IMG/VR virus record: IMGVR_UViG_3300046060_000019
Span: 1 to 47,161 of that record
Length of the DNA stretch: 47,161 bases
Direction: 5' to 3' (one strand)
DNA from: a virus
Position numbers and translations under genes: made by a program. Position 1 is the stretch's first letter. The number at the start of each line of letters is the position of its first letter. Shown in pieces: positions 3,963 to 47,161 of the stretch. The notes under the pieces were generated by a model. The model saw nothing but the letters and a program-made list of their open reading frames with translations. It did no database searches and had not been told where the DNA came from.

Positions 3963-4225
3963 TCGGGGTCACCCCCGACGCCGTCTGTAACGCCGTCCAG
4001 CGCGTCGTCAGCGTCGTCAGCGGCTTCGCGGGCGTGACGGTAAATCACGAACGCGAACACCCAGACGACTGTAACGAGCGCCGCGAACGCCCCCCAGCGA
4101 ACCGTGGGGCCGCCCGCCACAACTGTTTCCACCGACTTCGTCCAGCCGAGTAACGGGACTGTCGGGTAATAGACAGCCTTCTTACCCAGATTAACCGCTC
4201 GTTCCCGTGGTGTGTTCCCTGACAT
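3959..4225 (-). CDS. Small membrane protein (88 aa)
   Basis: Track ORF 3959..4285 trimmed to the ATG at 4225 (TAACCATG junction). Contains the hydrophobic segment WGAFAALVTVVWVFAFVIY. Confidence 0.5.
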   Translation of the reverse strand: MSGNTPRERAVNLGKKAVYYPTVPLLGWTKSVETVVAGGPTVRWGAFAALVTVVWVFAFVIYRHAREAADDADDALDGVTDGVGGDPE

Positions 4226-16981: not shown

Positions 16982-17016
16982 ATCCGACAGAATCAGCCAC
17001 GTCCGCTTAACCGAAC

Positions 17017-17027
17017 GTGACGCTGGA
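17017..17027 (-). promoter_or_regulatory. Class A promoter-proximal motif
   Basis: gtgacgctgga, with a 35-nt spacer to the portal ATG at 16981. Confidence 0.6.
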
Positions 17028-17036
17028 ACAGTCAGC

Positions 17037-20868: not shown

Positions 20869-21209
20869 AGGTGGACGCCCCGCCCGGAACGCGCCGACGG
20901 CGACGGTGAACGAGCGAACAGCCACGTTGGACAGTCCGAATTTGTTTCCTGACACTCGGGACCGACCCCCGCCGGGTAGCGCGTCGCCACGGAATAGCCG
21001 GTTTGTGGGCGTGTCGCTGGGCGTCGTTGGTGAAAGTAGGAAAAGGCCCCGCCGGGCGTGTTATTCCCGGTGGGGCGTGGTCACGAAGGGTCCGTGACGG
21101 GACGGTGGGGGACACCCGTGGTCGCCTTCCCACCCACTCGGTCCATGGTGGACCTATCGGCTTTTAGCCGATATGCGGGGTCACCAGACTTCCACGGCGT
21201 TACGTCCCA

Positions 21210-21325
21210 TGCGCCCGTCGGGAATTGAACCCGGTTAGGCCACCTTCCCACGGTCCAGACAGCACGCGACGGCTTCCCCATGGGTCACCGTCCGCTTATC
21301 TGGGCCGCGTTCGGTCCACGGGCGC
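21210..21325 (-). ncRNA. tRNA-like RNA, 116 nt
   Basis: The 5' GCGCCCG pairs perfectly with the 3' CGGGCGC. A T-arm CCGGG-TTCAATT-CCCGA precedes the 3' strand, with discriminator A. I could not fold the D and anticodon parts into a cloverleaf. Confidence 0.4.
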
Positions 21326-21429
21326 TGGTAAAAGGTGGGGGTAGTGGGGGATAGATGTTCGGGACGTGTCCCGTGACGCGGGCCGGTCCTCGTATCGCCA
21401 CGGTCGCCGCGTCAGCGCCGTGGACCGGA

Positions 21430-26998: not shown

Positions 26999-27787
26999 TT
27001 ACAGGTCGTCACTGGGGTCGAAGTCGCCCAGTTCGCCGTCGTCTAAGTCGGCCACGTCGTCCGGGCCGCCGTCTTCCGGCGGGTCCGGCGGGTCGTCGTG
27101 GTCGCCTTCACTTTCACTGTCCGCTTTCGGGCCGTCCGTACCCTGAAAGTCAGTCGAAGCGCCGCCGCCGAGTTCTTCCACGGCCTCGGCGTCCGTTAGT
27201 TGCATATGCGGCCCGTCGCTGTCGTCCAGTGTCACGTCGTCGTGGAAGTCGTCAGCGAACGATTCTGACGCTTCCCGTGCGGAACGGATAACGTCGGTGT
27301 TGATTCCCGCCCGTGTCGCCGCCTGTTCCAGCGCGTCTTCGTCCAGCGGCGTGTCGGCGTCGGTTAGGGCTATGTCGAACAGATATTCCAGTGTCTCGGC
27401 TTGAACCGCTTCGCGGGGGGACCACTGGGGGCTGTCGTCCACCGGGTCCGCCCGGTCATGGCGAAGCGGAATCAGCCGGGATTCCGGTACTGGATAGCGG
27501 TTCTTCGGGTCGTTCAGTCCGTCCCGATTCACCGGATTGTCCGTTAGGTACACGCATTGATACATGGTGTCGTCGGGCGTCGCACCTACCAGCGCGTTCT
27601 TGAAGTATTCCAGTTGGCCTTTCTCGCCGCCGGCCCGTCGGTCGTCGTACTCGGCGACGCTGTCGGCTAATCGCTGGACCACCAGCACGCGAGCGAAGCC
27701 TTTCTGTCCAACGTCGAACGCGACGCCGGGACAGCGAACGGTCAGGTCGAACGATTCCGCTTCGTCGTTTCGGGTGTGTTCCGGCAT
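26999..27787 (-). CDS. Hypothetical protein with a hyper-acidic C-terminal tail (262 aa); weak ssDNA-binding candidate
   Basis: Track ORF trimmed to the ATG at 27787. It ends ...DDVADLDDGELGDFDPSDDL, reminiscent of the acidic tails of SSB or T7 gp2.5. Confidence 0.55.
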   Translation of the reverse strand: MPEHTRNDEAESFDLTVRCPGVAFDVGQKGFARVLVVQRLADSVAEYDDRRAGGEKGQLEYFKNALVGATPDDTMYQCVYLTDNPVNRDGLNDPKNRYPVPESRLIPLRHDRADPVDDSPQWSPREAVQAETLEYLFDIALTDADTPLDEDALEQAATRAGINTDVIRSAREASESFADDFHDDVTLDDSDGPHMQLTDAEAVEELGGGASTDFQGTDGPKADSESEGDHDDPPDPPEDGGPDDVADLDDGELGDFDPSDDL

Positions 27788-27803
27788 GTTGTCGAACCTC
27801 TTT

Positions 27804-27990
27804 GACACCGTTCCGGTCCCGGTGTCGGGGACACCGCCCCGCCGACGGCGACGTGGTCCTGATTACTGGGGTAATCACGGACAACCACCAGCGTGGTTGC
27901 CTCGGTGAACAACTTTCGTTGTTTCACGTCGCCGTCCGGCGGTTTAGCGGTCTATAAACTGTATGGCGCTATACGAATTCGGGACCCGGA
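27804..27990 (-). promoter_or_regulatory. Structured leader or intergenic region with four hairpins and TATA-like boxes
   Basis: Hairpins at 27804..27826 (class B type GACACCG/CGGTGTC), 27860..27877, 27882..27899 and 27907..27924. TATA-like TTTATAG and GTATAGC lie at about 27951..27976. Confidence 0.55.
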
Positions 27991-28167
27991 CTATCCGCTG
28001 TCTTCCAGCGGCTTCGTCCGGGTGTTCGCCACAGCGGATACCGAGAACCGGACGCCGTGTTTTGCTCGTTCCACGTCGTCCAGCCCGTCCACGGTGAAGC
28101 CCGCGTCTTCCAGCACGCTGACGGCTTCCTTGACGGAATCCATGTCGTGTTCGGTGATTCCCGGCAT
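27991..28167 (-). CDS. Small hypothetical protein (58 aa)
   Basis: MPGITEHDMDSVKEAVSVLEDAGFTVDG..., with a TGACCATG junction. Confidence 0.5.
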   Translation of the reverse strand: MPGITEHDMDSVKEAVSVLEDAGFTVDGLDDVERAKHGVRFSVSAVANTRTKPLEDSG

Positions 28168-28169
28168 GG

Positions 28170-28310
28170 TCACGGTTCCAGTTCGGCGGCGGTCGCCGGG
28201 CCGGGGTTTTCCGCTTCGTCTTCGTCCGTTTTGTTCGCGGCGTACCCGAAGAAGTAGCCGAATATGAACACGAACAGTGTCCAGACGGCTAAGGTGAATT
28301 CGCCCAGCAT
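28170..28310 (-). CDS. Small membrane protein (46 aa)
   Basis: MLGEFTLAVWTLFVFIFGYFFGYAANKTDEDEAENPG... The ATG lies 2 nt after the PCNA stop. Confidence 0.4.
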   Translation of the reverse strand: MLGEFTLAVWTLFVFIFGYFFGYAANKTDEDEAENPGPATAAELEP

Positions 28311-28312
28311 GG

Positions 28313-29251
28313 CTATTGGTCGGTGATTCTCGGCGCGAGCATGAACACGCCACGGATTCCATATTCCTCGTTGAAGAACTGGAACACCGCCGGGAACTCG
28401 TCGCCCCAGCGAACAGTGACGTTGTCCATACGAGCGGACTTCAGCGCCTTCGCTATATTACGAAGGTAGTCCATGCTGAACAGGGACGACTGACCACGGA
28501 TTTTTTCGGTCAGCCCGTCGCCGTCGTAATCCTGTTCGTACCCGTTCAGGAACCGGACGGTGTCGGTAACAGTGTCGCCCTCGGCATGGAACTGAAACCC
28601 GTCGTCGTTCTCGGGGTCCGACCGGACCGCGACGTGGTCAGCCGTGGACTTCAGTTGTCCAACAGCGTCCTTCATGGCCTTTGCACTTTCTGGGTGTCCG
28701 ACATTCCGAAGGTTCAGCCCCGGAAGGTCCGGTTCCTGTCGGATACTGTCGGGGTCTATCAGGTTCATTAGGCTGACGCGCTGGGTGGCCTGACTGGACC
28801 GCGTGATTACTGTTTCCAGCCGTCGAAGGTCGTCCCCGTACCGCACTGAAACGGGGTCGCCGTCGTCGTCCACGCCGGACCCAGCCATACGAGCGTATCG
28901 GACGTTTTTCTGAAGACGGCCCAGATTCACGCCCAGCGTTTCACCAGCGCCGTCCACGTCCCACGACCCGAAGCCGCCGCCCTTGGCGGGAAGTGTCACG
29001 TCCACGAAGGCGACGCTCGCCGGGTCCACCGCCCGAATATGTAGCCCGTCCACTATGCTGTCGTCGCCCCACTCGGCTGTTTCTCGTTCCCCGACAACCA
29101 GTTTCGCTTCGTCCACCAGCGCGTAAGGGAGTCGAAGGAACAGCCGTAGCGGGGTCGCCCGAACGTCGAAGGTCAGCGTCGGGTCGGCCACGCGGTTCAG
29201 CGGGTTCGGTTCGTCGTCTGTCGGTTTCTCGGTTTGGTTTGTCGTCGCCAT
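28313..29251 (-). CDS. pcna: PCNA-like sliding clamp
   Basis: 312 aa with a two-domain PCNA-style pattern (LHIRAVDPASVAFVDV..., LGVNLGRLQK, SLMNLIDPDSI, C-terminal FMLAPRI). A class A motif lies 35 nt upstream. Confidence 0.75.
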   Translation of the reverse strand: MATTNQTEKPTDDEPNPLNRVADPTLTFDVRATPLRLFLRLPYALVDEAKLVVGERETAEWGDDSIVDGLHIRAVDPASVAFVDVTLPAKGGGFGSWDVDGAGETLGVNLGRLQKNVRYARMAGSGVDDDGDPVSVRYGDDLRRLETVITRSSQATQRVSLMNLIDPDSIRQEPDLPGLNLRNVGHPESAKAMKDAVGQLKSTADHVAVRSDPENDDGFQFHAEGDTVTDTVRFLNGYEQDYDGDGLTEKIRGQSSLFSMDYLRNIAKALKSARMDNVTVRWGDEFPAVFQFFNEEYGIRGVFMLAPRITDQ

Positions 29252-29286
29252 GTGTGCTTACAGAATCAGGATTGTGATTATCTCGC

Positions 29287-29297
29287 GTGACGCTGGA
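29287..29297 (-). promoter_or_regulatory. Class A promoter-proximal motif
   Basis: gtgacgctgga. On the minus strand ATAAT follows at -30..-26 from the ATG at 29251. Confidence 0.65.
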
Positions 29298-29308
29298 ACC
29301 GCCCAGCG

Positions 29309-29593
29309 TCAGTTCTCGGCGCTGTCGTGGCTGAACAGGAAGTCCTTCAGGTCGTCGGAACAGTCAGGGCAAATGTCGCCCTTCCAGTCGTCCACGACGT
29401 GCGGCTTGTTCTCGCCCACATAATCGGTCAGGGCGACGTGGGTACGGTCGGCCCCGGCGTCGCCTTTCTTCGGTGGTAGTTCGTCGTCCGACCGGATTTT
29501 GATGAATCCGCCACACCGGACGCACTCTTTACCGACTTCCAGTTGGTCAGGGTCCAGTTCTTCGCCGTCTTCAGTTCGGTATTTCCGTGTCAT
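29309..29593 (-). CDS. Zinc-ribbon protein (94 aa)
   Basis: CVRCGG...CPDC. Confidence 0.55.
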   Translation of the reverse strand: MTRKYRTEDGEELDPDQLEVGKECVRCGGFIKIRSDDELPPKKGDAGADRTHVALTDYVGENKPHVVDDWKGDICPDCSDDLKDFLFSHDSAEN

Positions 29594-29595
29594 GG

Positions 29596-30051
29596 TCAGT
29601 ATGTGTCGTCGGCGGTCAGGGCGCGAACGCGGTCGTCCACGCGCTGTTCCACGTCGGCGGTGTCGGGGTAGCCGTCCACCCGTCGAAGGGTCGCCCCCAC
29701 GACGGTATCAACGAGCGTGTCGCGTTCCATGTCGCCTGTCTCGTACTGTTCAAGAAGCCCGCTATGGGCTTCCAGTGCGGTGTCCACGTCGTCGTACCAC
29801 GGCGGGCCGTCGGCGGCGTCGCCGTCCAGTAGGTCCGAATAGACGACTTCCCTGACTTGTGGCGTCGGGACGTTCAGTTCCGCCGCTATCTCGGGAATAT
29901 CTACTTCGGGAACGGTCGCTTCCACGCTGACCTTCACCGGATATTCGGCGGGCGAGCGGTCGGATTTGGACGGCTTTGTTTTCCGAAAACGAACGTCGTC
30001 GTCCCGCCAATTGATTATCAGCCACCCGGTGTACGTCTTTTTCTTCGCCAT
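29596..30051 (-). CDS. Hypothetical protein (151 aa)
   Basis: Track ORF 29596..30351 trimmed to the ATG at 30051 (MAKKKTYTGW...). The Arg-rich N-terminal part overlaps the real gene 30054..30341. Confidence 0.55.
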   Translation of the reverse strand: MAKKKTYTGWLIINWRDDDVRFRKTKPSKSDRSPAEYPVKVSVEATVPEVDIPEIAAELNVPTPQVREVVYSDLLDGDAADGPPWYDDVDTALEAHSGLLEQYETGDMERDTLVDTVVGATLRRVDGYPDTADVEQRVDDRVRALTADDTY

Positions 30052-30053
30052 GG

Positions 30054-30341
30054 TCACATGTCCCCCATGATTGTGACGACGGTCAGGAACCAGACGACGG
30101 CGGCCACGACGCCAAAGGCCACCAGTGAAACGAGCGCCCGGACGTACACCGCCCAGTCGCCCAGCGGAATCGGCGGGGCGAACAGGAATACGGCCACGGC
30201 CCCGAGAAGGCCCCCGACGACGGCGAGGGTCCCGCCGTACTTCGCCCGCGTGAACCCGACGGACGGGTCCGACATGTCGTCGCTGTCGTCGTCCAGCAGA
30301 GACGGGCGGTCCGTGCTGGGGAAGTCGCTGTCTCGGTCCAT
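30054..30341 (-). CDS. Membrane protein (95 aa, 2-3 TM segments)
   Basis: GTLAVVGGLLGAVAVFLFAPPI and ALVSLVAFGVVAAVVWFLTVV. Confidence 0.55.
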   Translation of the reverse strand: MDRDSDFPSTDRPSLLDDDSDDMSDPSVGFTRAKYGGTLAVVGGLLGAVAVFLFAPPIPLGDWAVYVRALVSLVAFGVVAAVVWFLTVVTIMGDM

Positions 30342-30817
30342 TAGGCGTCACCCCCGTTATCGGGGAACAGTGCGTTCAGCCCGCGGTCCCCGCCGTCGGT
30401 CGCCACGCCGTCCAGTCCGTCCACGGCGTTGGCCCACTCGTTCAGGTATTCCCGAATCTCGCGGCGGCCCCGCTGGGTTAGCCCGTACTCGTTGGTCCGG
30501 CGGTCCAGTTCGGACTTCGCTACCAGCCCCATGTCGGACAGCGTGTTCATGTTCGGATACAGTCGTCCGTGGTGGACTTCGCTGTATCCGGCTTCGTCTT
30601 CCAGCCATTCCAGCACTTCCAGCCCGTTCGGGCCGCGTTCGTCGGTGGTCAGTGCGGCTATCGCTCGTAGTTGGTCCCGTTGGAACCCGGTCAGGTCGTA
30701 CATGTTCGTTGTTAGTTCCTGAATTCGTTCGTTCAGTTGTTCGCGCTGTTCATCCGGCGTGTCAGGGTCGTCCCGTCCTTCTTTCAGTTGGTCCAGTATC
30801 CGTGAAGCGTGGGTCAT
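30341..30817 (-). CDS. PadR-like winged-helix transcription regulator
   Basis: GRLYPNMNTLSDMGLVAKSELDRRTNEYGLTQRG matches the PadR-type recognition helix and wing pattern. Confidence 0.65.
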   Translation of the reverse strand: MTHASRILDQLKEGRDDPDTPDEQREQLNERIQELTTNMYDLTGFQRDQLRAIAALTTDERGPNGLEVLEWLEDEAGYSEVHHGRLYPNMNTLSDMGLVAKSELDRRTNEYGLTQRGRREIREYLNEWANAVDGLDGVATDGGDRGLNALFPDNGGDA

Positions 30818-30822
30818 GGTCG

Positions 30823-31038
30823 CTATTCACCGCCGGGAAGGGTGTCTTCCAGCGACCCGTCTATGACGGCTTCTATGCTGTCCACGCCGTCCGCTCGTAT
30901 TCGGTGAACGTCGCCGCCCGCCATGCGGACGACAACGTACCCTTCACCGTCGTCGCCTACATAGAATCCCGCGTGGGACGCTTGTGACCGATACGACTTC
31001 ACCGGGGACACGTCGTCCATGTCCACGTCGTCGGCCAT
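30823..31038 (-). CDS. Hypothetical protein (71 aa)
   Basis: Track ORF. Confidence 0.5.
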   Translation of the reverse strand: MADDVDMDDVSPVKSYRSQASHAGFYVGDDGEGYVVVRMAGGDVHRIRADGVDSIEAVIDGSLEDTLPGGE

Positions 31039-31040
31039 GG

Positions 31041-32507
31041 TCAGGTGTCCCCCCCGTTGACGGCGTCCAGAATCGCTTCGTTCAGTTCGTCCCCGCTGGG
31101 CTGGGCGGACACTGTCGCGTCCACGTCAGCGGCCAACGCTTTCCGCTCGTTGTAATCTGACGGTAGGGCGTCGGCGTCCAGTTCGTTCAGCGTGTCGGCG
31201 TCCACCACGTCGCCCCAGTCGTGGGGAAGAACGTCGTCCACGGGCGTGGCGGCTTCCACGTCGCGCCCGTCTTTGTCGCTGGGGACGACCGTCGCGGCGT
31301 CGTCCGGGTCGCTGTCGGCGGGGTCCACCGCCGCCGCTTCCAGACGCTCTATCAGGTCAGCCCGGTTAGGGTTGCCGTCCACGGAAACGTCGGACGCTTC
31401 CGCCAACGAGTGAAGGGCGGTCGTATCCAGTTCTTGAAGCCGTTCCACACGGCTGTCGTTAGCGCCGTCATACGGCGCGTCAGTGGATTCTTCGTCGTCC
31501 GTGGACGCTGGGTCGTACCCGTCGGCGTCGGCGGCCACGTCGCCCACGCTTCCGCCGTGGCCGGGCGTCAGGGTTTCAGCGACTTCGGTTAGGGCGTCGG
31601 TCGTCTTCCGGGCTATCTCGGGGTCGTTTAGCGACCCGTCGAAGTCGTCCAGCCGGTCGTCCACTTCGTCTTCGGGGACGGGTTCGCCCACGTCCACTAT
31701 GTCCAGTTGCCCGGTGTCTTCGTACTGTCGCGCCCACTTCGGAATGTCGTCGTCCGACGGGGCGGTCCAGACGACCCGCGTCAGGTACGAGTACCCGATA
31801 ACGCCGGGGACCGTCTTTACCGGTTTGTCGGCGTCGTCTTCGCCCAGCCGGTTGTCGTCGTCCATGTAGTTGACACGGACGTTCTCGGTCTTGGCGTCGC
31901 CGTCGTCGTCGGTGACGGCCACCTGTTCGCCGTCGTCCTCGGTGGTCACCGGCTGTTCGTACACCCGGAACGCCGTCGGGTGAATCAGGAACACCCGCGT
32001 GTTCATGGGGTTGATAGCGGGCGGCCCCTGTCGCTTCGACACCGGGATTCCCTTCGACAGCCCGAACCGCTGGGATTCCGTGACGAAGTCTTCCGGGTCG
32101 TCGTAGTACGTTTCCCCGACCCACATTAGTAGGTCCTCGGCGTATGCCGTGGTGATAGCGCCCCAGTGGTTCCCGTCTTCGGAGCCGTCCAGCCGGTCCC
32201 ATAGGTCCTGAAGGTCGTCTTCGTTCGGCTGGGTCGTTACGTCGTCACCCAGCGACCGCTGGAACCCCAGTCCGTCGAACTGTTGGTACGAGCGAAGCGT
32301 TCCTTCTTTGTAGGGAATCGGCGGGTCGAACGTCACGAAGGCGGGAATGTCGCCGCCACGGACGGGGTCAGTTCGGATGTACCCTTTTTCTTCTTCCAGA
32401 TAGCCACACCCGCGTTCTGGGTTGGGTAGTAGTTCCCGCCCAGTCTCGGGGTCGGCTTTCGGTTCGTAATCCAGTTGGTCGCCAAAGTTCGGGTTTTGTT
32501 CGGTCAT
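31041..32507 (-). CDS. Large early-region protein of unknown function (488 aa) with a hyper-acidic C-terminal half
   Basis: Track ORF trimmed to the ATG at 32507 (MTEQNPNFGD...). The N-terminal globular part contains RGCGYLEEEKGYIR and FDPPIPYKEG. I saw no Walker motif. Confidence 0.6.
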   Translation of the reverse strand: MTEQNPNFGDQLDYEPKADPETGRELLPNPERGCGYLEEEKGYIRTDPVRGGDIPAFVTFDPPIPYKEGTLRSYQQFDGLGFQRSLGDDVTTQPNEDDLQDLWDRLDGSEDGNHWGAITTAYAEDLLMWVGETYYDDPEDFVTESQRFGLSKGIPVSKRQGPPAINPMNTRVFLIHPTAFRVYEQPVTTEDDGEQVAVTDDDGDAKTENVRVNYMDDDNRLGEDDADKPVKTVPGVIGYSYLTRVVWTAPSDDDIPKWARQYEDTGQLDIVDVGEPVPEDEVDDRLDDFDGSLNDPEIARKTTDALTEVAETLTPGHGGSVGDVAADADGYDPASTDDEESTDAPYDGANDSRVERLQELDTTALHSLAEASDVSVDGNPNRADLIERLEAAAVDPADSDPDDAATVVPSDKDGRDVEAATPVDDVLPHDWGDVVDADTLNELDADALPSDYNERKALAADVDATVSAQPSGDELNEAILDAVNGGDT

Positions 32508-32515
32508 GGCCGGTA

Positions 32516-32824
32516 TTAGTTGTCGTCGGTCGCTTGTATCTCGTTCCGCCGGACAGGCTCGGCGTCGTCCAGCGGATACGCCTTGAACTTCCGCTGGGCG
32601 GCTTTGTCGGCGTCCGGGTCCAGCGCGTCTTCGGCTAACCCCGCACGCACTTCCCATGAACCACCGTATCGGTCACCCAGTTCGGTGACCGTGTCAACGG
32701 CCCGCCGGACGGCTTCGGGCGGGTCCCTCGCGGGGACCGCCGTCGCCACGACGGATTCCATGGGGCCTTGGTCGGCGTTCGGGGAGTGGGTGACCGTCAC
32801 CGTCCAGTCGCGGCTGTCAGGCAT
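32516..32824 (-). CDS. Hypothetical protein (102 aa)
   Basis: Track ORF starting MPDSRD; its start overlaps the upstream stop (ATGCCTGA). Confidence 0.55.
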   Translation of the reverse strand: MPDSRDWTVTVTHSPNADQGPMESVVATAVPARDPPEAVRRAVDTVTELGDRYGGSWEVRAGLAEDALDPDADKAAQRKFKAYPLDDAEPVRRNEIQATDDN

Positions 32825-32936
32825 GGGTCACCGCCGTCACGCGGACGCCCCGTCGGGCGTATTCTTCGGCTTTGTTGCTATCTGTCGTCTGAAACCGTCG
32901 TTCTGAGCTGTAAACCCGGTAGGTCGTTCTCGCCAT
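32817..32936 (-). CDS. Small basic protein (39 aa)
   Basis: MARTTYRVYSSERRFQTTDSNKAEEYARRGVRVTAVTHA. It is preceded by a class B leader. Confidence 0.35.
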   Translation of the reverse strand: MARTTYRVYSSERRFQTTDSNKAEEYARRGVRVTAVTHA

Positions 32937-32940
32937 AGTT

Positions 32941-32995
32941 CTGTCAGGCAACACCGTTTACACCCGGCGTCGAGGTGACCGCCCCGTCACTGAAC
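32941..32995 (-). promoter_or_regulatory. Class B conserved leader (GTGACGGGGCGGT box plus ACGCCG...CGGTGT hairpin)
   Basis: The minus strand reads GTGACGGGGCGGTCACCTCGACGCCGGGTGTAAACGGTGTTGCCTGACAGAACT then ATG. Confidence 0.55.
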
Positions 32996-33026
32996 AAGAG
33001 CTGTTCAGGGACGGTGTGACGGAAAA

Positions 33027-33200
33027 CGGACAGGGCGGGATTTGAACCCGCGAAGCGACTTCCCCGGCGCTTCCGAAGGACACAAGGACAGTGTTGTCCC
33101 GGCGGGGGTGTCCGCCGGTCCCTCGTACCACGTCCCCGGTTCCGCCGCCAAAGCCCGTTGATGAAAACGGGCCGCCTTGTCCAGACTCGGCCACCTGTCC
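33027..33200 (-). tRNA. Oversized tRNA-like gene (174 nt), possibly an intron-containing class II tRNA
   Basis: Acceptor GGACAGG/CCTGTCC (7 bp, perfect). D-arm GCC-GAGTCTGGACAA-GGC. T-arm GCGGG-TTCAAAT-CCCGC. Discriminator G followed by TTTT. About 90 extra nt carry internal hairpins. Confidence 0.5.
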
Positions 33201-33228
33201 ACGGTGAAACGAACAGCGGCGTTGGCCG

Positions 33229-33504
33229 CTATTCGTCTTCGTCGTCGCGCTCGGGAATCACCATGTCGGTGTCGTCGGCGTCAGGTGGCGGCTGTTCGTC
33301 CTTCAGGTCGTCGTAATCCTTTCGGTGGCGGTCCCGCTCGTACTCGGCTATGTCCACGGCGTCGGCGTCGCCCATAGGACAGTCGGCTTCGTGGTCGTCC
33401 TCGTTGGCTATCAGCCGGTCGCACTCGGGACACGACGGCGGGTCCGGTTCGTTCCATGGGGCGTTCGGGTCGCCGGGACCCGTCCCCGGTGGGTATCCGC
33501 CCAT
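33229..33504 (-). CDS. Acidic zinc-binding protein (91 aa)
   Basis: CPECD...HEADCP. Confidence 0.55.
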   Translation of the reverse strand: MGGYPPGTGPGDPNAPWNEPDPPSCPECDRLIANEDDHEADCPMGDADAVDIAEYERDRHRKDYDDLKDEQPPPDADDTDMVIPERDDEDE

Positions 33505-33506
33505 GG

Positions 33507-33857
33507 TCAGGCGTCACCCTGTTCGGACGGCTTCAGCACGTCGGGACGGACTTCGTGGCCCACTATCTCGCCGTCACCACGGACGACAAGGTGACCGACG
33601 TGGGTGGTCGTCCCCGACTTCAGTCTTCGGCGGTCAACCTTCGGCCCAAAGTGTTCTTCCACGTACTCGGTCCACTTGTCGCTGTCAATCCCAAACACGG
33701 CCCCGAGCGACCACCCCGCCGTGTCTTCATGTCGCGGGTGGTCGTACCAGTTGACCTTCCGGGTGACCGTTTCGTCGTCGTCCATGTCGGATAGCGTCGG
33801 AAGGCCCGCCATGGTCCCGGTCACGTCTTCGGCCAACCGTTCGGCGTCGTCGGTCAT
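33507..33857 (-). CDS. Hypothetical protein (116 aa)
   Basis: Track ORF with a TGACCATG junction. Confidence 0.55.
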   Translation of the reverse strand: MTDDAERLAEDVTGTMAGLPTLSDMDDDETVTRKVNWYDHPRHEDTAGWSLGAVFGIDSDKWTEYVEEHFGPKVDRRRLKSGTTTHVGHLVVRGDGEIVGHEVRPDVLKPSEQGDA

Positions 33858-33859
33858 GG

Positions 33860-34273
33860 TCAGTTCCCGTTTTCGTGCGGGTTCGGGGCCGGGTCCAGTT
33901 CGCCCGATACGAGCATTTCAACGAAGTCGTCCATCGTAAACCAGCCGTTCAGCGGGTTCAGCGGGTGTCCTTCGTCGGGGTGAATCCCGTCGGGGTACAC
34001 CAGTGCGACTTCGCCGTCACCAAAGCCGTCGTCGTCCCGATAGTCGCTGTTCGGGCGGTAGCTGACGCCGTCGAACAGGAACACGTCGCCGTCGTACCGG
34101 AAGAACGTCTTCCCGGCTTCCATGGTCACTGTCGCGCCGGTCCGGTCTGACGACGGGCCGGGCGTGGTGATTGTTCGGTAACTGTTCGGCTGTTCGGCGT
34201 GGTCAGTGGTGACGCGAAGTTGAATCTTGTTTCCAAGAATTCCGACCACGTCACCGGGGTTGTGGTCAACCAT
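33860..34273 (-). CDS. Hypothetical protein (137 aa)
   Basis: Track ORF, preceded by a class B leader. Confidence 0.55.
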   Translation of the reverse strand: MVDHNPGDVVGILGNKIQLRVTTDHAEQPNSYRTITTPGPSSDRTGATVTMEAGKTFFRYDGDVFLFDGVSYRPNSDYRDDDGFGDGEVALVYPDGIHPDEGHPLNPLNGWFTMDDFVEMLVSGELDPAPNPHENGN

Positions 34274-34281
34274 AGGTCGTT

Positions 34282-34335
34282 CAACACCGTTTGCGCCCGG
34301 TGTCAGGGCGACCGTCCCGCCACGAACGAGCGTGA
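34282..34335 (-). promoter_or_regulatory. Class B conserved leader
   Basis: The minus strand reads TTCACGCTCGTTCGTGGCGGGACGGTCGCCCTGACACCGGGCGCAAACGGTGTTGAACGACCT then ATG. Confidence 0.55.
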
Positions 34336-34371
34336 AGCCCGCCGTGACGGTTAGACGGATAACGCCGCTGT

Positions 34372-34503
34372 TCAGTCCTTCGACTGGGCCACGCCGTCAA
34401 AGGTGTTGACTGAACAGCCGCCGTTCGGACACGTTACGTCAGTGTCACCATAGTCGGCGTGAAGCGCCGTCTGACAGTTAGGACAGTAGGTCAGCACTGT
34501 CAC
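34372..34503 (-). CDS. Mini zinc-ribbon protein (43 aa, GTG start)
   Basis: (M)TVLTYCPNCQTALHADYGDTDVTCPNGGCSVNTFDGVAQSKD, with a GTGA overlap with the upstream stop. Confidence 0.4.
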   Translation of the reverse strand: MTVLTYCPNCQTALHADYGDTDVTCPNGGCSVNTFDGVAQSKD

Positions 34504-34625
34504 CAGCCCCGTGGACCCTTCCCGTCCATGGCGGCGTCCGCACGTTCATGGTCACGGAACCGCGGCGCGGGGTTGTTCTTCGCCTGTTCGTTAGCCGTCG
34601 GAACGTCGTTAGTCTCGTTGGTCAT
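34500..34625 (-). CDS. Small hypothetical protein (41 aa)
   Basis: MTNETNDVPTANEQAKNNPAPRFRDHERADAAMDGKGPRGW, with an ATGA overlap with the upstream stop. Confidence 0.35.
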   Translation of the reverse strand: MTNETNDVPTANEQAKNNPAPRFRDHERADAAMDGKGPRGW

Positions 34626-34945
34626 GGTCGGCGGCGGTTGAAGAACTGAAGGTCAAACCCGAAGTGGGGTTCCACCGTCCAGTTCTCGTTTCTGAAGCCG
34701 GTGACTTCCGGGTCGCTGACGCGCCCCAGTTCGCCCGTGAACAGGCTTTCGCCGCCGGTCAGGTGAACAGCCCACTTGTACGGGCCGCCTTCCCATGCGA
34801 CGCCCCACGCGCCGTTCTCGCGGGGATTGTCTTCGGGCCGGTACAAGTGGGCGTCGGCGTCCAGTTCTTCGGTCAGGTACTTGTGAAGGCGTTTCGCCGC
34901 GCTCGCCGCTGTCTCGTATTCGCTTAGGTCCAGTGGGTCGGACAT
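34622..34945 (-). CDS. Hypothetical protein (107 aa)
   Basis: Track ORF. Confidence 0.55.
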   Translation of the reverse strand: MSDPLDLSEYETAASAAKRLHKYLTEELDADAHLYRPEDNPRENGAWGVAWEGGPYKWAVHLTGGESLFTGELGRVSDPEVTGFRNENWTVEPHFGFDLQFFNRRRP

Positions 34946-35046
34946 GGGCAGTGTCGAAGGGGCGCTTCAAGGTCGTACTCGTTTAGGTCGTCGCGTTGCT
35001 GGAAGGGTTCGTCAACGGCGTCGGGGTAAGTCTCGTTGTCGTACAT
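34924..35046 (-). CDS. Small acidic protein (40 aa)
   Basis: MYDNETYPDAVDEPFQQRDDLNEYDLEAPL... It fills an otherwise empty 106-nt gap and overlaps the next gene by 22 nt. Confidence 0.3.
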   Translation of the reverse strand: MYDNETYPDAVDEPFQQRDDLNEYDLEAPLRHCPCPTHWT

Positions 35047-35051
35047 GCGAA

Positions 35052-35441
35052 TCACCGAACAAGTCGGTACGTCAGCCGGGGAAGTTCGTCGTCGTCCAGT
35101 TCGTCAGCGTCCATGTCGTTGTCCAGTTCACCGGATTCCAGAACGTTCACCTTCAGTCCAGCGTGTCCAGCGATAGCGGACACGTCGGTGGGAATTGAAC
35201 GCTTCCCGGGTTCCTGAACCACGGTGACGGCGTACAGAACGCCGTCTTCGTTCTGGAACACCGGGGTCAATTCTATGGATTCAATCGGCCCCATAGACCC
35301 GCCTTTCTCGTTCAGAATGGCGTTTCGTGCGGCCACCAGCCCAATTTCAGGCTGGAATTCGTCGGGGAAACTGTCTCGGTCGGTTCGCGCTTCGTTGACG
35401 TACTGTTCAAATTCGTCGGCTTCGACAGTATGCGATAGCAT
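35052..35441 (-). CDS. Hypothetical acidic protein (129 aa), the first gene after the large non-coding region
   Basis: Track ORF 35052..35750 trimmed to the ATG at 35441 (MLSHTVEADEF...). The basic N-terminal part of the track ORF lies in the structured non-coding DNA. Confidence 0.55.
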   Translation of the reverse strand: MLSHTVEADEFEQYVNEARTDRDSFPDEFQPEIGLVAARNAILNEKGGSMGPIESIELTPVFQNEDGVLYAVTVVQEPGKRSIPTDVSAIAGHAGLKVNVLESGELDNDMDADELDDDELPRLTYRLVR

Positions 35442-35474
35442 GGCTGTTTCTCGGCGCTGACGTGGCCGCTGACG

Positions 35475-35530
35475 GACACCAGTTGTCCATGGTGTCAGTG
35501 GAACCGTCCCGTCACGAAACGAGCATGGAC
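35475..35530 (-). promoter_or_regulatory. Class B conserved leader
   Basis: The minus strand reads CATGCTCGTTTCGTGACGGGACGGTTCCACTGACACCATGGACAACTGGTGTC (7-bp hairpin GACACCA/TGGTGTC). Confidence 0.5.
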
Positions 35531-36373
35531 GCCGTTCGTCCAGTGGCCCATGTCGTGACGGTTTGACGGTAGAATGAACTAACGCACGCGACGCTTCCCG
35601 ATTCAGGGCGTTGTCCTTTCGGGAAGCGAACGGCCCAGTCGCCTGTAACAGCGTGAAGGCCATTCCACGACACCGGGTGAAGTTCCGCCTTTCGTGGGCG
35701 TTCCACTTCGACCGGACCCGACGGTCCGCGCTGGGGGTGGCGTCAGTCACCGTGCGGGGGCGCTGTCCCGCGTCGGCGTCGTTTCTCTCGTCGCCGCGTG
35801 GCCCCGTTCGACTGGGGTGTGAACCACGCGGCTGGACTGGTGTCCCCCGTCACCCGCTCGCGCCGAAGCGCGTCGGTACACTGGGGTGTCTCGGGGCGTG
35901 ACGCCCGAAGGAACCAGCGGGACCGCCTGTCGTCGCCCCCGAGTGGTCGAACGGCCCAGCATGGCCGTGGGTCCCGCACTCGGGGGAACCGCCGTGAATT
36001 GTGGCCGCACGGCGGAACGGGGGCGAACAGGTGAACGCTCGTCAGGCAGGGGGCGCGTCAGCGCCCCGATACATGACACCCTTTCGAGAGTAGCCACTTA
36101 TATCTTTCCCAATTGTTCCACTGGGCGTATTAGGGTTAGTCACAAGAGCGGATTACCGGCCCGTTCCACCGACCGGCGTATGACAGGCGAAAGCGGTTAG
36201 GCGGTGAATAATCCGCCGTTCAGCGTCTTAGTAACCTAATAATCAAGTGCCACCGGGCCGTCGAACCCAGTGCGGGCGGCGGCGGTGAACGCTTGTCAGG
36301 CAACACCTTTCGTCCCGTGAACGCGGACGAACTCTTGCCGCCACCCCCAATTCAGAATCAGACAGCGACCGCG
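35531..36373. other. ~840-nt non-coding, highly structured control region (candidate origin and/or large ncRNA)
   Basis: There is no acidic ORF. Tetraloop-capped GC helices lie at 35859..35872, 35593..35627, 36050..36067 and 36200..36217. An 18-mer repeat occurs at 36031 and 36285. An AT-rich core at 36085..36250 carries an ORB-like box. Confidence 0.6.
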
Positions 36374-38098
36374 TCAGACAATCCTGACGTTCTCGTATGT
36401 CTCGCCGTTCTCGGCGGACACATTCACTGTCCCGTCGTCGTTGACCGCCGTGACTTCGCCCACGACCGGGTCAAACCCACCCACGACATTAGAACCGCCG
36501 CTGGTGGCGGAATTTCGGCGCTGGATAATCTGATTCACCGCCGCCTGTCCGATAGATTCCGTGGCCGTCGGACGTTTGGTCCCGAATTCCACGTTCGTCT
36601 TCGCTTCGTCCGGGGCCACCTGATATTCCACTTTCTGAACAGTGAAGGTGTTGTCCGTCACTTTTTGCGGAATCCCGCGGCTGGGGTAATATATTTCAGC
36701 CCGGTCGCCGGGGCGAACGTCCATTATTCCGGCGACTGGGGCGGTTCCGCTGACGCTCGTTCGGTACGCCTTATCAAATACGTCATGGGCGACAGCCAAC
36801 GCCTGATACCAACCCGTAATCTGGGGGTCCGACACACTGGTGGCGCGAAGGTCTATTTCGTCTATGTCGTTGATTCCCCCAGCGAGACTATCCTTCCACT
36901 TCCATGTGTATTTGTCACTGGTATCGGTGGGGAACACCCCTTTTTCATGGGGATTTTCGTAGCCCCACATAGTGTAAACAGACCCGTTATACGCCCATGT
37001 CCAGACATTCACGCCGCCCTGACCGGAAACCTGAACGTAGTTCTTCACGCCGTCTATATTCCGCTTCGCTATCGGTCGGATTACATTCTGACCTTCAGTG
37101 AATGTGTACCGACTGGGTTTGCGGGTCTGTTCCGGGCGAACAACGAGCGTGTCCGTGCTATCCCTGACGAAGTATTCCCACGGCGTCCCCCCGTCCAGCG
37201 ATTGAATATAAGAGATAATACGGTTAAGAAAGTCCCGGGTAGAATAATCCTGTTGGGCGCTGAAGTTCCAGTCGTTCTCTACATAATTGTATATATTAGC
37301 CGATAGCGCCACAGTCGCGGACCCGGTCAGGTCAGGAACGTTCGTGTTGATACTGTTCACTTCCGCCCACAACTGATTCCCACCAGACAGCGCCAAATTC
37401 ACGGCGTTGGTCCCGTAAGCTTCAACAGGGCCGTCACCCGGTGGAAGGTCCAGTGACGCTTTGACAGTGTTTCCGTCAGCGTCCGCCCCGGTTATATCCA
37501 GCGTGTACGTCGCGCCCGTGTTGTTCTCGTAACCGTCAATCCGAAGCTCGGCCTGTTTCCCCCGGTTGTCGTTGACAGTTTCGTGTTGGTCGAAGGTATC
37601 AGAATTTGCGTCGAAGCGTCCGTAGTGGGAAACGGTGACCATTCCGAAGTCGGTTGCTTCCGAGAACAGGCCGTATTCGGCCTTTGCGGCGTCAGCGTCA
37701 TACGAGATACCCCGGATTTTGGACGGTCCCGTGTCCACGACGCCGTCAATAACGTCCCAAATGTTGTCTTCGTTGTACCGCCCCACCACCGTGCTGTCGT
37801 CCAGACGGCCTTCAGGCGTCCGTGCGTCCAGCGTGACGACGGGTTCCGTGTCGTCGTCGTCCACGTCGTCCACGAAGCCGCTGAATACCACGGTGTCGTT
37901 TCCGTCGGTCAGCGTCACGTCTATGTCCGCTTGTTCTTCCAGCGCGTGCGGGCGCTGACTGGTATCCAGTTTGACGGTGACGCTGTTCGGGTTTCCTTGT
38001 TCTCGCGTGTACGTTATTTCAATTACGTCACCAGAAACGTCGCCTTCAGGGCTGACGGTGACAGTCCAGTCAACCGAGTACGCTTGTGTGGCGGACAT
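36374..38098 (-). CDS. Tail tip / baseplate protein candidate (574 aa)
   Basis: It is the last gene of the tail module. The N-terminal pattern (VDWTVTVSPEGDVSGDVIEITY...VVFSGFVDDVD) resembles hub or Tal-type N-domains. Confidence 0.45.
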   Translation of the reverse strand: MSATQAYSVDWTVTVSPEGDVSGDVIEITYTREQGNPNSVTVKLDTSQRPHALEEQADIDVTLTDGNDTVVFSGFVDDVDDDDTEPVVTLDARTPEGRLDDSTVVGRYNEDNIWDVIDGVVDTGPSKIRGISYDADAAKAEYGLFSEATDFGMVTVSHYGRFDANSDTFDQHETVNDNRGKQAELRIDGYENNTGATYTLDITGADADGNTVKASLDLPPGDGPVEAYGTNAVNLALSGGNQLWAEVNSINTNVPDLTGSATVALSANIYNYVENDWNFSAQQDYSTRDFLNRIISYIQSLDGGTPWEYFVRDSTDTLVVRPEQTRKPSRYTFTEGQNVIRPIAKRNIDGVKNYVQVSGQGGVNVWTWAYNGSVYTMWGYENPHEKGVFPTDTSDKYTWKWKDSLAGGINDIDEIDLRATSVSDPQITGWYQALAVAHDVFDKAYRTSVSGTAPVAGIMDVRPGDRAEIYYPSRGIPQKVTDNTFTVQKVEYQVAPDEAKTNVEFGTKRPTATESIGQAAVNQIIQRRNSATSGGSNVVGGFDPVVGEVTAVNDDGTVNVSAENGETYENVRIV

Positions 38099-39641: not shown

Positions 39642-39677
39642 TACGACGGACAAGCCACCTGTTCCCCTTCAACGAGT

Positions 39678-39688
39678 GTGACGCTGGA
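39678..39688 (-). promoter_or_regulatory. Class A promoter-proximal motif (inside the tail module)
   Basis: gtgacgctgga. The downstream leader is nearly identical to the one at 449..494. Confidence 0.6.
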
Positions 39689-39698
39689 AGCGAAGGGG

Positions 39699-47106: not shown

Positions 47107-47161
47107 ACTGTTCTAACTGTTCTTCCGGGTCGTCTTCGTCACCCCCCACCAGCATACCCTT
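47099..47161 (-). CDS. C-terminal end of the chaperone ORF begun at 448 (continuation across the circular junction)
   Basis: Reads ...KGMLVGGDEDDPEEQLEQFR*. Positions 47107..47161 duplicate 1..55. Confidence 0.6.
   Translation of the reverse strand, partial: KGMLVGGDEDDPEEQLEQFR
47107..47161. repeat. Terminal direct repeat copy 2 (identical to 1..55)
   Basis: Exact 55-nt identity with the window start. Confidence 0.9.

Follow-up and report, generated by a model that had tools for sequence, protein, structure and literature searches.

The minus strand of the 47,161-nt DNA of a haloarchaeal virus (the window, meaning the whole stretch analysed) carries four copies of a composite element, a box followed by (C)TGACACC and a hairpin, upstream of the ATGs at 35441, 34273, 32936 and 27787. 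Are these elements DNA signals, or parts of a structured RNA? The copies reported in the initial annotation were all present, with the loops and boxes it quoted. The box pattern GRCGGGRCGGT occurs six times in the window against an expectation of 0.67, and none of 100 shuffles reached six. A descriptor composed of the box end and the pseudoknot described below recovered all four copies, while mononucleotide shuffles averaged 0.35 hits. We also used a covariance model, R2, trained on 25 copies that all came from other viruses, the window contributing none. Searching the window unfiltered, R2 returned exactly the four copies (36.5–52.7 bits; E-values of 1.3e-10 to 7e-7); the next-best match (19.4 bits, E 0.006) lies within a coding region. 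Two shorter copies that had been counted in the family fall outside it: 35839..35853 gave no covariance-model match, and the inverted one, 21094..21116 on the plus strand, gave 13 bits (E about 0.2 to 1). The box-like sequence at the latter is conserved in the relatives L055 and L057, so it is not without meaning, though it falls short of a full element.

The box GTGRCGGGRCGGT does not stand as an independent sequence box. In the structural model it supplies the 3′ side of a long helix. Its partner, ACCGTC-AAA-CCGTCAC, lies 13–90 nt upstream, outside the part previously described, and would pair with it around a bulge of 3 nt, with a U opposite each of the two R positions (A/G). An outer helix, P0 (ACCGTC with GRCGGT), set off from the inner helix P1 by the 3-nt A-rich bulge, may form. 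The hairpin is present as described, but it is only half of a predicted H-type pseudoknot, of which it forms stem 2: the 5-nt linker after the box pairs in the model with the 5′ half of the loop, and this pairing covaries. Stem 1 has 4–5 bp, the loop after it 0–2 nt, stem 2 6–8 bp and the A-rich third loop 4–6 nt. The parts of the four copies are as follows.

35555..35570, minus strand: copy 1 upstream strand, ACCGTC (P0 5′), AAA (bulge, candidate start site), CCGTCAC (P1 5′ base); paired with the box in the MFE fold
35516..35554, minus strand: copy 1 P1 interior, irregular hairpin containing CATGCTCGTT
35503..35515, minus strand: copy 1 box, GTGACGG then GACGGT, predicted 3′ strands of P1 and P0
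35475..35502, minus strand: copy 1 predicted pseudoknot, S1a TCCA, L1 CT, S2a GACACCA, S1b TGGA, L3 CAAC, S2b TGGTGTC
35439..35474, minus strand: copy 1 spacer of 33 nt with two CGTCAGCG motifs, and ATG of a 129-aa ORF
34344..34359, minus strand: copy 2 upstream strand, TCCGTC, TAA, CCGTCAC
34324..34343, minus strand: copy 2 P1 interior, containing TTCACGCTCGTT
34311..34323, minus strand: copy 2 box, GTGGCGG then GACGGT; the G faces U
34282..34310, minus strand: copy 2 predicted pseudoknot, S1a CGCCC, S2a TGACACC, S1b GGGCG, L3 CAAAC, S2b GGTGTTG
34271..34281, minus strand: copy 2 spacer of 8 nt, and ATG of a 137-aa ORF
33008..33023, minus strand: copy 3 upstream strand, TCCGTC, ACA, CCGTCCC; begins 3 nt past the end of a tRNA gene
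32991..33007, minus strand: copy 3 P1 interior, hairpin TGAACA gctct TGTTCA
32978..32990, minus strand: copy 3 box, GTGACGG then GGCGGT
32949..32977, minus strand: copy 3 predicted pseudoknot, S1a CACC, L1 T, S2a CGACGCCG (holds the G-U), S1b GGTG, L3 TAAA, S2b CGGTGTTG
32934..32948, minus strand: copy 3 spacer of 12 nt, and ATG of a 39-aa arginine-rich ORF
27952..27974, minus strand: promoter-like motif directly upstream of copy 4, GTATAGCG-N8-TTTATAG, conserved in L054–L057 and also in L058, which has no element
27936..27951, minus strand: copy 4 upstream strand, ACCGCT, AAA, CCGCCGG
27846..27935, minus strand: copy 4 P1 interior, 11-bp closing stem round three hairpins (7–9-bp stems, 4-nt loops), a four-way junction; z-score −5.9
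27833..27845, minus strand: copy 4 box, TCGGCGG then GGCGGT
27804..27832, minus strand: copy 4 predicted pseudoknot, S1a GTCCC, L1 C, S2a GACACC, S1b GGGAC, L3 CGGAAC, S2b GGTGTC
27785..27803, minus strand: copy 4 spacer with Shine-Dalgarno-like GAGGT, and ATG of a 262-aa ORF

The G-U pair noted earlier in one copy is real (copy 3, GACGCCG/CGGTGTT), and the orthologous copies L054:3043 and L056:31 have it too. A proposed link to the other motif class of the window, class A, through a shared TCACGCTCGTT context applies to two of the four copies (exact in copy 2, one mismatch in copy 1) and not to the other two; the context sits inside the variable P1 stem.

Unconstrained folding yielded P0, bulge and P1 in all four window copies and in 22 of 29 copies overall, and the sense strand outdid the antisense strand in 25 of the 29 (mean 3.5 kcal/mol). 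Non-Watson-Crick pairs in P0 and P1 comprise 34 G-U against 9 A-C. The base of P1 is constant within a genome, its tip very variable, and between lineages the base changes in a compensatory manner: CCGTCAC/GTGACGG in the window, TTCCACC/GGTGGAA in HHTV-1 and TCCCG/CGGGA in L003. The P0 core (CCG/CGG) is invariant and therefore has no support from covariation.

Comparison with related viruses showed that the element is present there with its fold kept, giving 30 copies from 11 viral contigs. In the pseudoknot, 86.9% of the cells in this alignment are paired, as opposed to 69.4% in shuffles, and the covariation score is 0.529 versus 0.218; none of 500 shuffles reached 0.529, and slid controls stayed at or below 0.17. 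Two-sided changes are found in four of the five stem-1 pairs and five of the six stem-2 pairs, and leaving out the window copies did not alter the covariation result. Stem 2 varies even among the copies of one genome (GGCGCTG, GACGCTG, GCGGCG and TGGCGCCG in L059; five different stems in L004), so that no single dimeric DNA-binding protein could read them all. In the pseudoknot stems it is structure, not sequence, that is conserved. Selection on RNA structure, as suggested in the initial annotation, is thus borne out by the covariation of both stems across relatives, and the copies and helices, with their conservation and covariation, are matters of observation. The two stems could also represent alternative hairpins that do not form together.

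The cultured virus HHTV-1 has four copies of the same architecture but different sequence. Copies precede orthologous genes in the window, L054–L057, L059 and HHTV-1, and the gene blocks between copies differ among relatives. The juxtaposition of tRNA gene and element seen at copy 3 is also found in L054 and L059, and L060 has part of the element tandemly duplicated. The box and stem 2 of L005 (48% G+C) are nearly those of the window, and no recognised protein encoded in its 7 kb is common to the window. A search of Rfam matched no family, even at permissive E-values.

Where do the elements lie relative to transcription? T-rich tracts precede them, and the signals that look like a promoter are AT-rich and stand upstream of the element, outside the box, with peaks at −26/−25 and −11 to −6 relative to the bulge. 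In most copies the bulge obeys the initiator rule of a pyrimidine at −1 and a purine at +1. In virus HF2, TATA was measured about 26 nt upstream of the start site of its repeats (PMC8707807); if such spacing from the GTATAGCG box applies here, the candidate start site would coincide with the AAA bulge. Transcripts would then lack the 5′ strand of P0, whose conservation would have to be explained at the DNA level. L058 keeps CTATAGCG-N8-TTTATCGA only 10 nt from the ATG, with no element (nearly leaderless), and in relatives the element comes after this same promoter-like motif. The reading that fits best is therefore that of a transcribed leader, inserted between the promoter and the start codon. 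The class A motif of the window, a palindrome with a TATA-like motif some 27 nt ahead of the ATG, points to leaderless genes. The pseudoknot ends 8–22 nt from the AUG in most copies and 33–44 nt in some; a GAGGU Shine-Dalgarno-like motif often lies between them, and about half of the copies have no such motif.

The explanation that we favour, with slightly better than even confidence, is a cis-acting structured 5′ leader RNA that would control how non-structural gene blocks are translated or how stable their messages are, probably by way of a binding factor specific to the virus. Each copy would be a 75–150-nt module between the promoter and the first start codon of such a block, transcribed as part of the mRNA leader and acting in cis at the ribosome-binding region. 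The 5′-proximal stem would protect the message, and the pseudoknot, abutting the ribosome landing site, would set the translation level of the first cistron. A trans factor, probably virus-encoded, would recognise the base of the stem together with the bulge, which do not vary within a genome and differ between virus lineages, and switch the whole message class together. The early region yielded no recognisable RNA-binding protein, and the near-identical box and stem 2 of L005, with no recognised protein in common, fit a host factor that is conserved better than one specific to the virus. Among the roles offered in the initial annotation, a separately regulated (early?) promoter, a 5′-UTR class or a translational operator, the latter two still fit best; for "early" timing and any promoter role of the element, we can only infer.

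Pseudoknotted translational operators are found in the leaders of phage T4 gene 32 and of the E. coli rpsO (S15) and alpha (S4) operons; they are single-copy, bacterial and autoregulatory, the bound protein being encoded downstream. The present element resembles them in placing an H-type pseudoknot in a 5′ leader near the ribosome-binding site, where it could be a protein-binding switch for the first cistron, but it differs in having four to five copies per genome, before unrelated genes of an archaeal virus, and an extra bulged stem. Compact H-type pseudoknots with A-rich loops near the ribosome-binding site are also typical of several small riboswitch classes, and the window pseudoknots share this geometry. 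A riboswitch binding a small ligand or ion is nevertheless very improbable: four or five copies per genome stand before unrelated genes whose function is unknown, it is the helices, not the variable loops or the junctions, that hold the conserved nucleotides, and no Rfam riboswitch matched.

A DNA-level promoter/operator cassette, akin to the promoter-carrying repeats of HF2 or the PeSLs (promoter-early stem-loops) of T4-type phages, is unlikely but carries some weight. ACCGTC-AAA-CCGTC would span the start site, the box would offer a second, inverted site to the transcription factor that binds there, such as the PadR-like protein at 30341–30817, and the hairpins would be incidental, or cruciforms or recombination sites. 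The AT-rich peaks fit the haloarchaeal TATA and −10/−11 WW layout, the bulge usually satisfies the initiator rule, the pentamer CCGTC occurs four times per element (two direct, two inverted), pairing of the invariant P0 core is unproven, and the PadR-family gene adjoins PCNA in the window and relatives; HRTV-25 has repeats with inverted arms flanking a TATA-like motif. HF2's two sets of intergenic repeats, class I and class II (29–58 bp, AT-rich), are experimentally shown promoters with the start site inside the repeat, one class preceding early/middle and the other morphogenesis genes (Russ, Pfeiffer and Dyall-Smith 2021; PMC8707807). Like the class A and class B motifs of the window, they form two distinct conserved classes in the intergenic gaps of a haloarchaeal tailed virus, with positions conserved among relatives and a virus-encoded reading factor proposed (PMC8707807). 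However, the window lacks their motifs, neither RNA structure nor covariation was reported for them (PMC8707807), and the present element is GC-rich, 75–150 nt long, defined by covarying helices and a pseudoknot, and can be missing where the promoter motif is kept, as in L058. PeSLs and the TATA plus inverted-repeat motif of HGTV-1 are likewise repeated composites of a sequence block and a stem-loop before small, variable early genes (PMC4122927, PMC2839356; HGTV-1 as summarised in PMC3950731), and the differing gene blocks and the L060 duplication would similarly fit recombination at repeats. A PeSL, however, combines a terminator-like stem-loop with an early promoter of the bacterial sigma-70 type, and acts at the level of the DNA or as a terminator (PMC4122927, PMC2839356), whereas the present stem-loop lies downstream of the promoter-like motif, has no T-run after it and is part of the predicted pseudoknot. 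Against a duplex read by protein, stem 1, stem 2 and distal P1 differ within a genome yet stay complementary, in keeping with a folded single strand as the target of selection; the sense strand is favoured and G-U exceeds A-C, and the supposed two sites are 13 to 90 nt apart with always self-complementary sequence between them.

Somewhat less likely still is an RNA end-protection or processing module, in which long transcripts would be cut at sites such as the adjacent tRNA's 3′ end, and the stem and pseudoknot would block 5′-to-3′ exonucleolytic decay, like a 5′-terminal stabiliser or exonuclease-resistant RNA. Copy 3 begins 3 nt past a tRNA gene, as in L054 and L059, P1 would be 0–3 nt away from the predicted 5′ end, folding is very stable, and long halovirus transcripts are processed to shorter RNAs in HF2 and phiH1 (PMC8707807). 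But a tRNA precedes only one of the four window copies, and neither the lineage-level sequence conservation of stem base and bulge nor the need for a pseudoknot beside the stem is explained. Such a role is compatible with the leader RNA that we favour and does not exclude it.

More doubtful than either is control of transcription elongation, in which the nascent leader, alone or with a viral protein, would modify the host RNA polymerase for read-through of downstream T-rich terminators throughout each gene block. It would be an archaeal-virus analogue of lambda nut, which consists of boxA and boxB, or of the put RNAs of HK022. As first described, the element did resemble these, with a box and hairpin just past early promoters in several copies; each copy heads a same-strand gene block in the replication/regulation region, a structured RNA lies just past putative promoters, and T-rich tracts lie upstream. 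The lineage-specific stem bases recall the N/nut specificity of lambdoid phages. Unlike nut and put, however, the box is predicted to be paired, not single-stranded, and the hairpin loop is unconserved and part of the pseudoknot. No N-like antiterminator protein was recognised, the host uses an archaeal RNA polymerase, for which we know of no cis-RNA antitermination system, and the tight AUG spacing favours translation over elongation.

Taken together, the sequence comparisons suggest that the four elements are a previously undescribed family of RNAs with a putative regulatory function. Because the fold is kept while the sequence changes in relatives, including HHTV-1, this would be a regulatory RNA family that can be tested by experiment.

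The window is a complete genome of a haloarchaeal tailed virus, with an acidic proteome, a G+C content of 61% and nearly all of its genes on the minus strand. Because its first and last 55 bases are identical (1–55 and 47107–47161), the contig is circular or circularly permuted, and its unit measures 47,106 bp. The closest record by large terminase is Haloarcula hispanica tailed virus 1 (HHTV-1, Madisaviridae; 48% identity); a nucleotide similarity search of the element region against the phage collection gave no match. The leader element described here is found in the non-structural module, which includes the following genes:

28313–29251, PCNA
30341–30817, PadR-like regulator

The initial annotation had reported a conserved box, the sequence (C)TGACACC and a hairpin on the minus strand before the ATGs at 35441, 34273, 32936 and 27787 (copies 1–4, respectively), and all four full copies proved to be real and correctly placed. 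The box pattern occurs six times in the window, compared with 0.67 expected. To avoid circularity, we scanned the window, without filters, with a covariance model (R2) built from 25 copies that all come from other viruses. The four copies were recovered at 36.5–52.7 bits (E 1.3e-10 to 7e-7), and the next-best match, at 19.4 bits, was a glycine-rich coding stretch. The TCACGCTCGTT context that the family was said to share with another motif of this genome, class A, is present at copies 1 and 2 but not at copies 3 and 4.

The occurrence of the element in relatives, on which the initial annotation had made its proposal depend, was borne out. A pattern scan of IMG/VR revealed it in four further halovirus-like contigs (L003–L006), and seven metagenomic contigs (L054–L060) were reached through homologues of the window PCNA (48–84% identity). 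The latter have a gene order in common with the window and, L058 excepted, carry the element upstream of the orthologous genes. HHTV-1 has four copies (at 35087, 36153, 37727 and 40364), the same in architecture and different in sequence. Broader searches added little: the pattern CCGTCWAACCGTCAC matched 45 loci in IMG/VR, L004 alone being related; a metagenome pattern scan gave at least 120 loci, and among the matches listed only the contig L258 had the full architecture. A box-plus-hairpin pattern run against 185,000 reference genomes yielded, among the matches listed, only chance ones in high-GC bacteria, and two haloarchaeal MAG matches to this pattern lie within coding sequence and are not elements. 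Nucleotide similarity searches with the copy 4 element against phages and with a consensus-like element against plasmids returned only high-GC bacterial noise, and an IMG/VR single-protein search with a 262-aa gene product found no relatives. Contig L060 has one box followed by three tandem pseudoknot units (1490–1600; tcccc-GACACCG-gggaa..-CGGTGTC), which suggests slippage or recombination inside the element. Several contigs (L054, L056 and L060) start or end within an element, probably through assembly breaking at the repeat.

The box is present as a sequence, but it is not an independent motif, since its bases are predicted to pair with an upstream segment. ACCGTC-AAA-CCGTCAC or a near variant is located 13–90 nt upstream of every box; its CCGTCAC forms helix P1 with the initial seven bases of the box (GTGRCGG), and its ACCGTC would form helix P0 with the last six (GRCGGT), leaving a 3-nt bulge on the upstream strand (AAA, TAA, ACA, ATA or AGA; GAA in HHTV-1). 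Both R positions of the original consensus face a U, which explains their A/G degeneracy. Across 25 copies, the P0 pairs comprise 120 Watson-Crick, 21 G-U, 2 A-C and 7 other combinations, and the P1 pairs 142, 13, 7 and 13, respectively. The interior of P1 is self-complementary in all copies and unrelated from one to another; its smallest form is a 5-nt loop and its largest, in window copy 4, a 90-nt junction of three hairpins. P0, bulge and P1 appear in the unconstrained minimum-free-energy fold of all four window copies (z-scores −2.3 to −5.9) and of 22 of the 29 copies overall. Both strands at the base of P1 differ between lineages (CCGTCAC/GTGACGG in the window, TTCCACC/GGTGGAA in HHTV-1, TCCCGaCACG/CGTGaCGGGA in L003). 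The core of P0, CCG/CGG, is invariant, so that P0 remains a putative helix, at most compatible with pairing.

The hairpin was likewise reinterpreted: its stem is real (S2 below), but it does not stand alone. In essentially all copies, the 4–5-nt linker between box and hairpin is complementary to the first 4–5 nt of the hairpin loop, making the hairpin one half of a pseudoknot.

Complementary linker/loop segments
Window, four copies: TCCA/TGGA, CGCCC/GGGCG, CACC/GGTG, GTCCC/GGGAC
Relatives: GACCC/GGGTC, CCCCC/GGGGG, CCGGC/GCCGG, TCCC/GGGA, CCCG/CGGG, CGGCC/GGCCG
HHTV-1: TCGGC/GCCGA, CTGCC/GGCAG, ATCCC/GGGAT

The segments follow the order S1a-L1-S2a-S1b-L3-S2b, the classical H-type geometry, with an L1 of 0–2 nt, an S2 of 6–8 bp, an L2 of 0–1 nt, an S1 of 3–5 bp and an A-rich L3 of 4–7 nt that mostly ends in AC. 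In H-type pseudoknots, a short L1 can cross the deep groove of a 6–7-bp S2, and crossing a 4–5-bp S1 takes 3 nt or more of L3. With two supported helices and loop lengths that fit coaxial stems, the element is a predicted member of the H-type class. S1 and S2 (GACACC/GGTGTC) have no nucleotide in common; the sequence would fit their coexistence as well as their alternation.

S2 is constant among the close relatives of the window, and in L059 it is replaced by unrelated complementary stems (GGCGCTG, GACGCTG, GCGGCG and TGGCGCCG), as it is in L004 (five different stems) and HHTV-1. We evaluated covariation quantitatively in 30 copies. The paired cells amounted to 86.9%, compared with 69.4% in shuffles, and the covariation score was 0.529, compared with 0.218; none of the 500 shuffles reached the observed score, and sliding the partners by 1–3 columns reduced it to 0.05–0.17. 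Changes on both sides were seen at four of the five pairs of S1 and five of the six pairs of S2. A repeat without the window copies gave the same picture (85.6% paired, score 0.506, 0/500 shuffles). Thus the alignment across related viruses upholds the earlier proposal of selection on RNA structure, for S1 and S2 alike.

Because no one protein reads different palindromes in one genome, the conserved entity is a folded single strand; a palindrome for a dimeric regulator was rejected, as the stems vary among the copies of a single genome. Of 29 copies, 25 have a more stable fold on the sense strand than on the complementary one (mean difference 3.5 kcal/mol), and G-U outnumbers A-C in P0/P1 by 34 to 9, both counts including orthologous copies that are not independent. 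The wobble noted initially in stem 2 of copy 3 is indeed G-U on the sense strand, and it recurs in the orthologues of this copy. Fold preference, G-U excess and this wobble agree in pointing to a sense-strand RNA.

A contribution at the DNA level has to be weighed against this background. GTATAGCG-N8-TTTATAG lies upstream of copy 4 and its orthologues, abutting ACCGTC. The same motif occurs in L058 (2140–2210) as CTATAGCG-N8-TTTATCGA, followed after 10 nt by the ATG of the gene orthologous to 26999–27787, and the element was not found anywhere in the 9.8 kb of L058 (PCNA 60% identical). Because L058 has the motif without the element, the element behaves as an insert between promoter and start codon; L058 would be nearly leaderless, whereas the element-bearing relatives would be leadered. 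The TATA-to-start distance measured for the HF2 repeats, in which the start falls within the repeat, is ~26 nt (PMC8707807). This spacing would put the start ~30–32 nt after the G of GTATAG in L058 and the element-bearing genomes alike, which in the latter would be the AAA bulge. In the 28 copies with enough flank, AT content peaks at −26/−25 and at −11 to −6 from the first bulge base, and a pyrimidine/purine step is found at −1/+1 of the bulge, a pattern that fits the haloarchaeal promoter layout; a canonical TATA is seen only at copy 4 and its orthologues. With a start at the bulge, the RNA would have P1 at its extreme 5′ terminus, and transcription would not cover the 5′ strand of P0. This putative start is the chief uncertainty on P0 and the chief support for a partial role at the DNA level, and it is plausible that the ACCGTC-AAA segment contributes there as DNA.

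A tRNA gene precedes copy 3:

33027–33200, minus strand, tRNA gene with an insert of ~100 nt (intron or oversized arm), ending 3 nt before copy 3

It was missed by ARAGORN and the Rfam default filters and scored 34.6 bits (gathering score 29) in a permissive scan; a tRNA 3′ end likewise abuts the element in L054 (~3010–3030) and L059 (~350–375). The argument that the gap between this tRNA and copy 3 is too short for a promoter was dropped, because the T-loop TTCAAAT (−29 to −23 from the bulge) could serve as a TATA box.

On the downstream side, most copies leave 8–22 nt between the end of the pseudoknot and the AUG; window copy 1 leaves 33 nt, and the distance in L003 and L004 reaches 44 nt. 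A Shine-Dalgarno-like GAGGT follows the pseudoknot by 2–5 nt in about half of the copies, and those without GAGGT have the AUG within 8–15 nt of the pseudoknot. Three HHTV-1 copies have an extra hairpin with a conserved loop, (t/a)CGATAC, between pseudoknot and start codon (36195–36225, 37765–37802 and 35123–35155), and TCGATAC also precedes other HHTV-1 start codons.

Class A consists of TTCCAGCGTCACG, with a palindromic core, and then a TATA-like motif ~27 nt before the ATG; its HHTV-1 equivalent is ATCCAGCGTGATGCTGGTTTATG. This layout suggests a class of leaderless promoters that serve the PCNA, portal and tail genes.

29252–29300, minus strand, class A motif
16982–17030, minus strand, class A motif
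39642–39690, minus strand, class A motif
448–494, minus strand, class A motif

Two shorter copies of the element had been proposed in large non-coding regions, and neither held up: 35839–35853 gave no model match, and 21094–21116 scored only 13 bits. These regions have the following features:

20980–21420, non-coding, strongly conserved with L055 (~9300–9720); also holds the hairpin TATCGGC-TTTTA-GCCGATA and a 110-nt window insert with the tRNA 3′-end-like CCGGGTTCAATTCCCGACGGGCGCA (minus strand)
21094–21116, plus strand, box copy then GGGG-GACACC; on the gene-sense strand, perfect complementarity to the box over 13 nt
35571–36373, large non-coding region upstream of copy 1, with several GC-rich hairpins and no covariance-model match
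35839–35853, partial box GTGACGGGGGACACC

The region at 20980–21420 could be a non-coding RNA, a replication origin or an attachment site, and that at 35571–36373 may have a control function or be where early transcription begins.

We compared the element with known systems. Rfam 15 gave no match to it at gathering thresholds, and at permissive E-values the window region and five relatives remained without a match to the element, the neighbouring tRNA alone being scored. It is not described in the halovirus literature searched, a scope outside which the original HHTV-1 genome paper falls. Nearest to it among published systems are the intergenic repeats of HF2, which carry promoters and fall into classes I and II (PMC8707807), along with the T4-type PeSL cassettes and the TATA/inverted-repeat motif of HGTV-1 (PMC4122927, PMC3950731). 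Like HF2 with its two repeat classes, the window has a second class, class A, beside the element. However, the HF2 alpha/beta/gamma motifs (TCTTTAAGTC, CGTCTNNTAGAG) have 0 and 2 near-matches in the window, which is chance level and non-intergenic. PeSL combines a terminator-like stem-loop with a sigma-70 early promoter, whereas here the host is archaeal, no T-run follows the stem-loops and these lie downstream of the AT-rich motif. Neither the HF2 repeats nor the PeSL/HGTV-1 motifs are defined by covarying RNA helices, as the element is. HRTV-25 (NC_062759) has a different intergenic repeat before many genes, CTTCCCGAGTTTGAAA-ATACATGAAACCG...GCGGCGGGAAG, with inverted arms TTCCCG/CGGGAA around a TATA-like motif and a sequence unrelated to the element (for example in the gaps 56–135, 3977–4047, 6530–6602 and 14283–14364).

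The closest functional analogues are pseudoknotted translational operators (the T4 gene 32, S15 and S4 leaders) and the lambda nut and HK022 put RNAs; we assign the element to neither group. Lambda nut has a single-stranded boxA and a boxB with a conserved loop, whereas the box of the element is paired upstream and its loops vary and pair with the linker. An L7Ae-binding kink-turn was rejected, the 3-nt bulge being followed by C-G, C-G (window family) or U-A, U-A (HHTV-1) rather than by tandem sheared G-A, and so was the archaeal bulge-helix-bulge splicing motif, which has a 3-nt bulge in each strand, opposite each other across a 4-bp helix, compared with one bulge between helices of 5–6 bp and at least 7 bp. 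A riboswitch, for which a ligand pocket of conserved unpaired nucleotides and genes sharing a pathway would be expected, does not agree with conservation in the helices, variable loops and downstream genes that have no relation to one another and no known function. An intrinsic terminator was rejected because neither strand has a T-run after the stems; a self-cleaving ribozyme was rejected for want of an Rfam match and core motifs. Against a replication priming signal, the copies occur within 8 kb only and invariably just before start codons.

Taken together, the element is a real, multi-copy and structurally conserved leader, richer in anatomy than first described. As judged from sequence comparison, it most likely serves to control blocks of non-structural genes post-transcriptionally (translation, stability or both), and a factor reading the conserved bulged stem would mediate this. 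Pfam and PHROGs searches with ~20 early proteins identified solely PCNA, the PadR-like protein and families of unknown function, and found no RNA-binding candidate among them. The first ORF after copy 3 (32817–32936, minus strand) specifies an arginine-rich peptide of 39 aa, MARTTYRVYSSERRFQTTDSNKAEEYARRGVRVTAVTHA, which could bind nucleic acids and stands out against the acidic remainder of the proteome. L057 has an orthologue (55% identity); in L054 and L056, none follows the equivalent copies immediately.

A bolder interpretation, which we regard as improbable, would make this the first case of an archaeal virus using a cis-acting RNA to commandeer the host expression machinery directly, either through an IRES-like pseudoknot that recruits or positions ribosomes, replacing leaderless or Shine-Dalgarno initiation in haloarchaea, or through a nut/put-like RNA by which the archaeal RNA polymerase is reprogrammed; in both versions the switch would be a viral protein, specific to the lineage, that reads the bulged stem. 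Known examples of structured cis-regulatory RNAs are very scarce in Archaea, and we know of none from archaeal viruses, where discussion of gene regulation has centred mainly on promoters and antisense RNA. The present multi-copy leader, with clear covariation for both bulged stem and pseudoknot, is kept from metagenomic viruses to HHTV-1. As HHTV-1 is cultured, the predictions are directly testable, with Haloarcula hispanica and HHTV-1 as the experimental route. The pseudoknot, at the usual position of the Shine-Dalgarno helix, offers a handle on how haloarchaea initiate on leadered mRNAs without Shine-Dalgarno sequences, and the contrast between the leadered relatives and the leaderless L058 is a natural, ready-made experiment.
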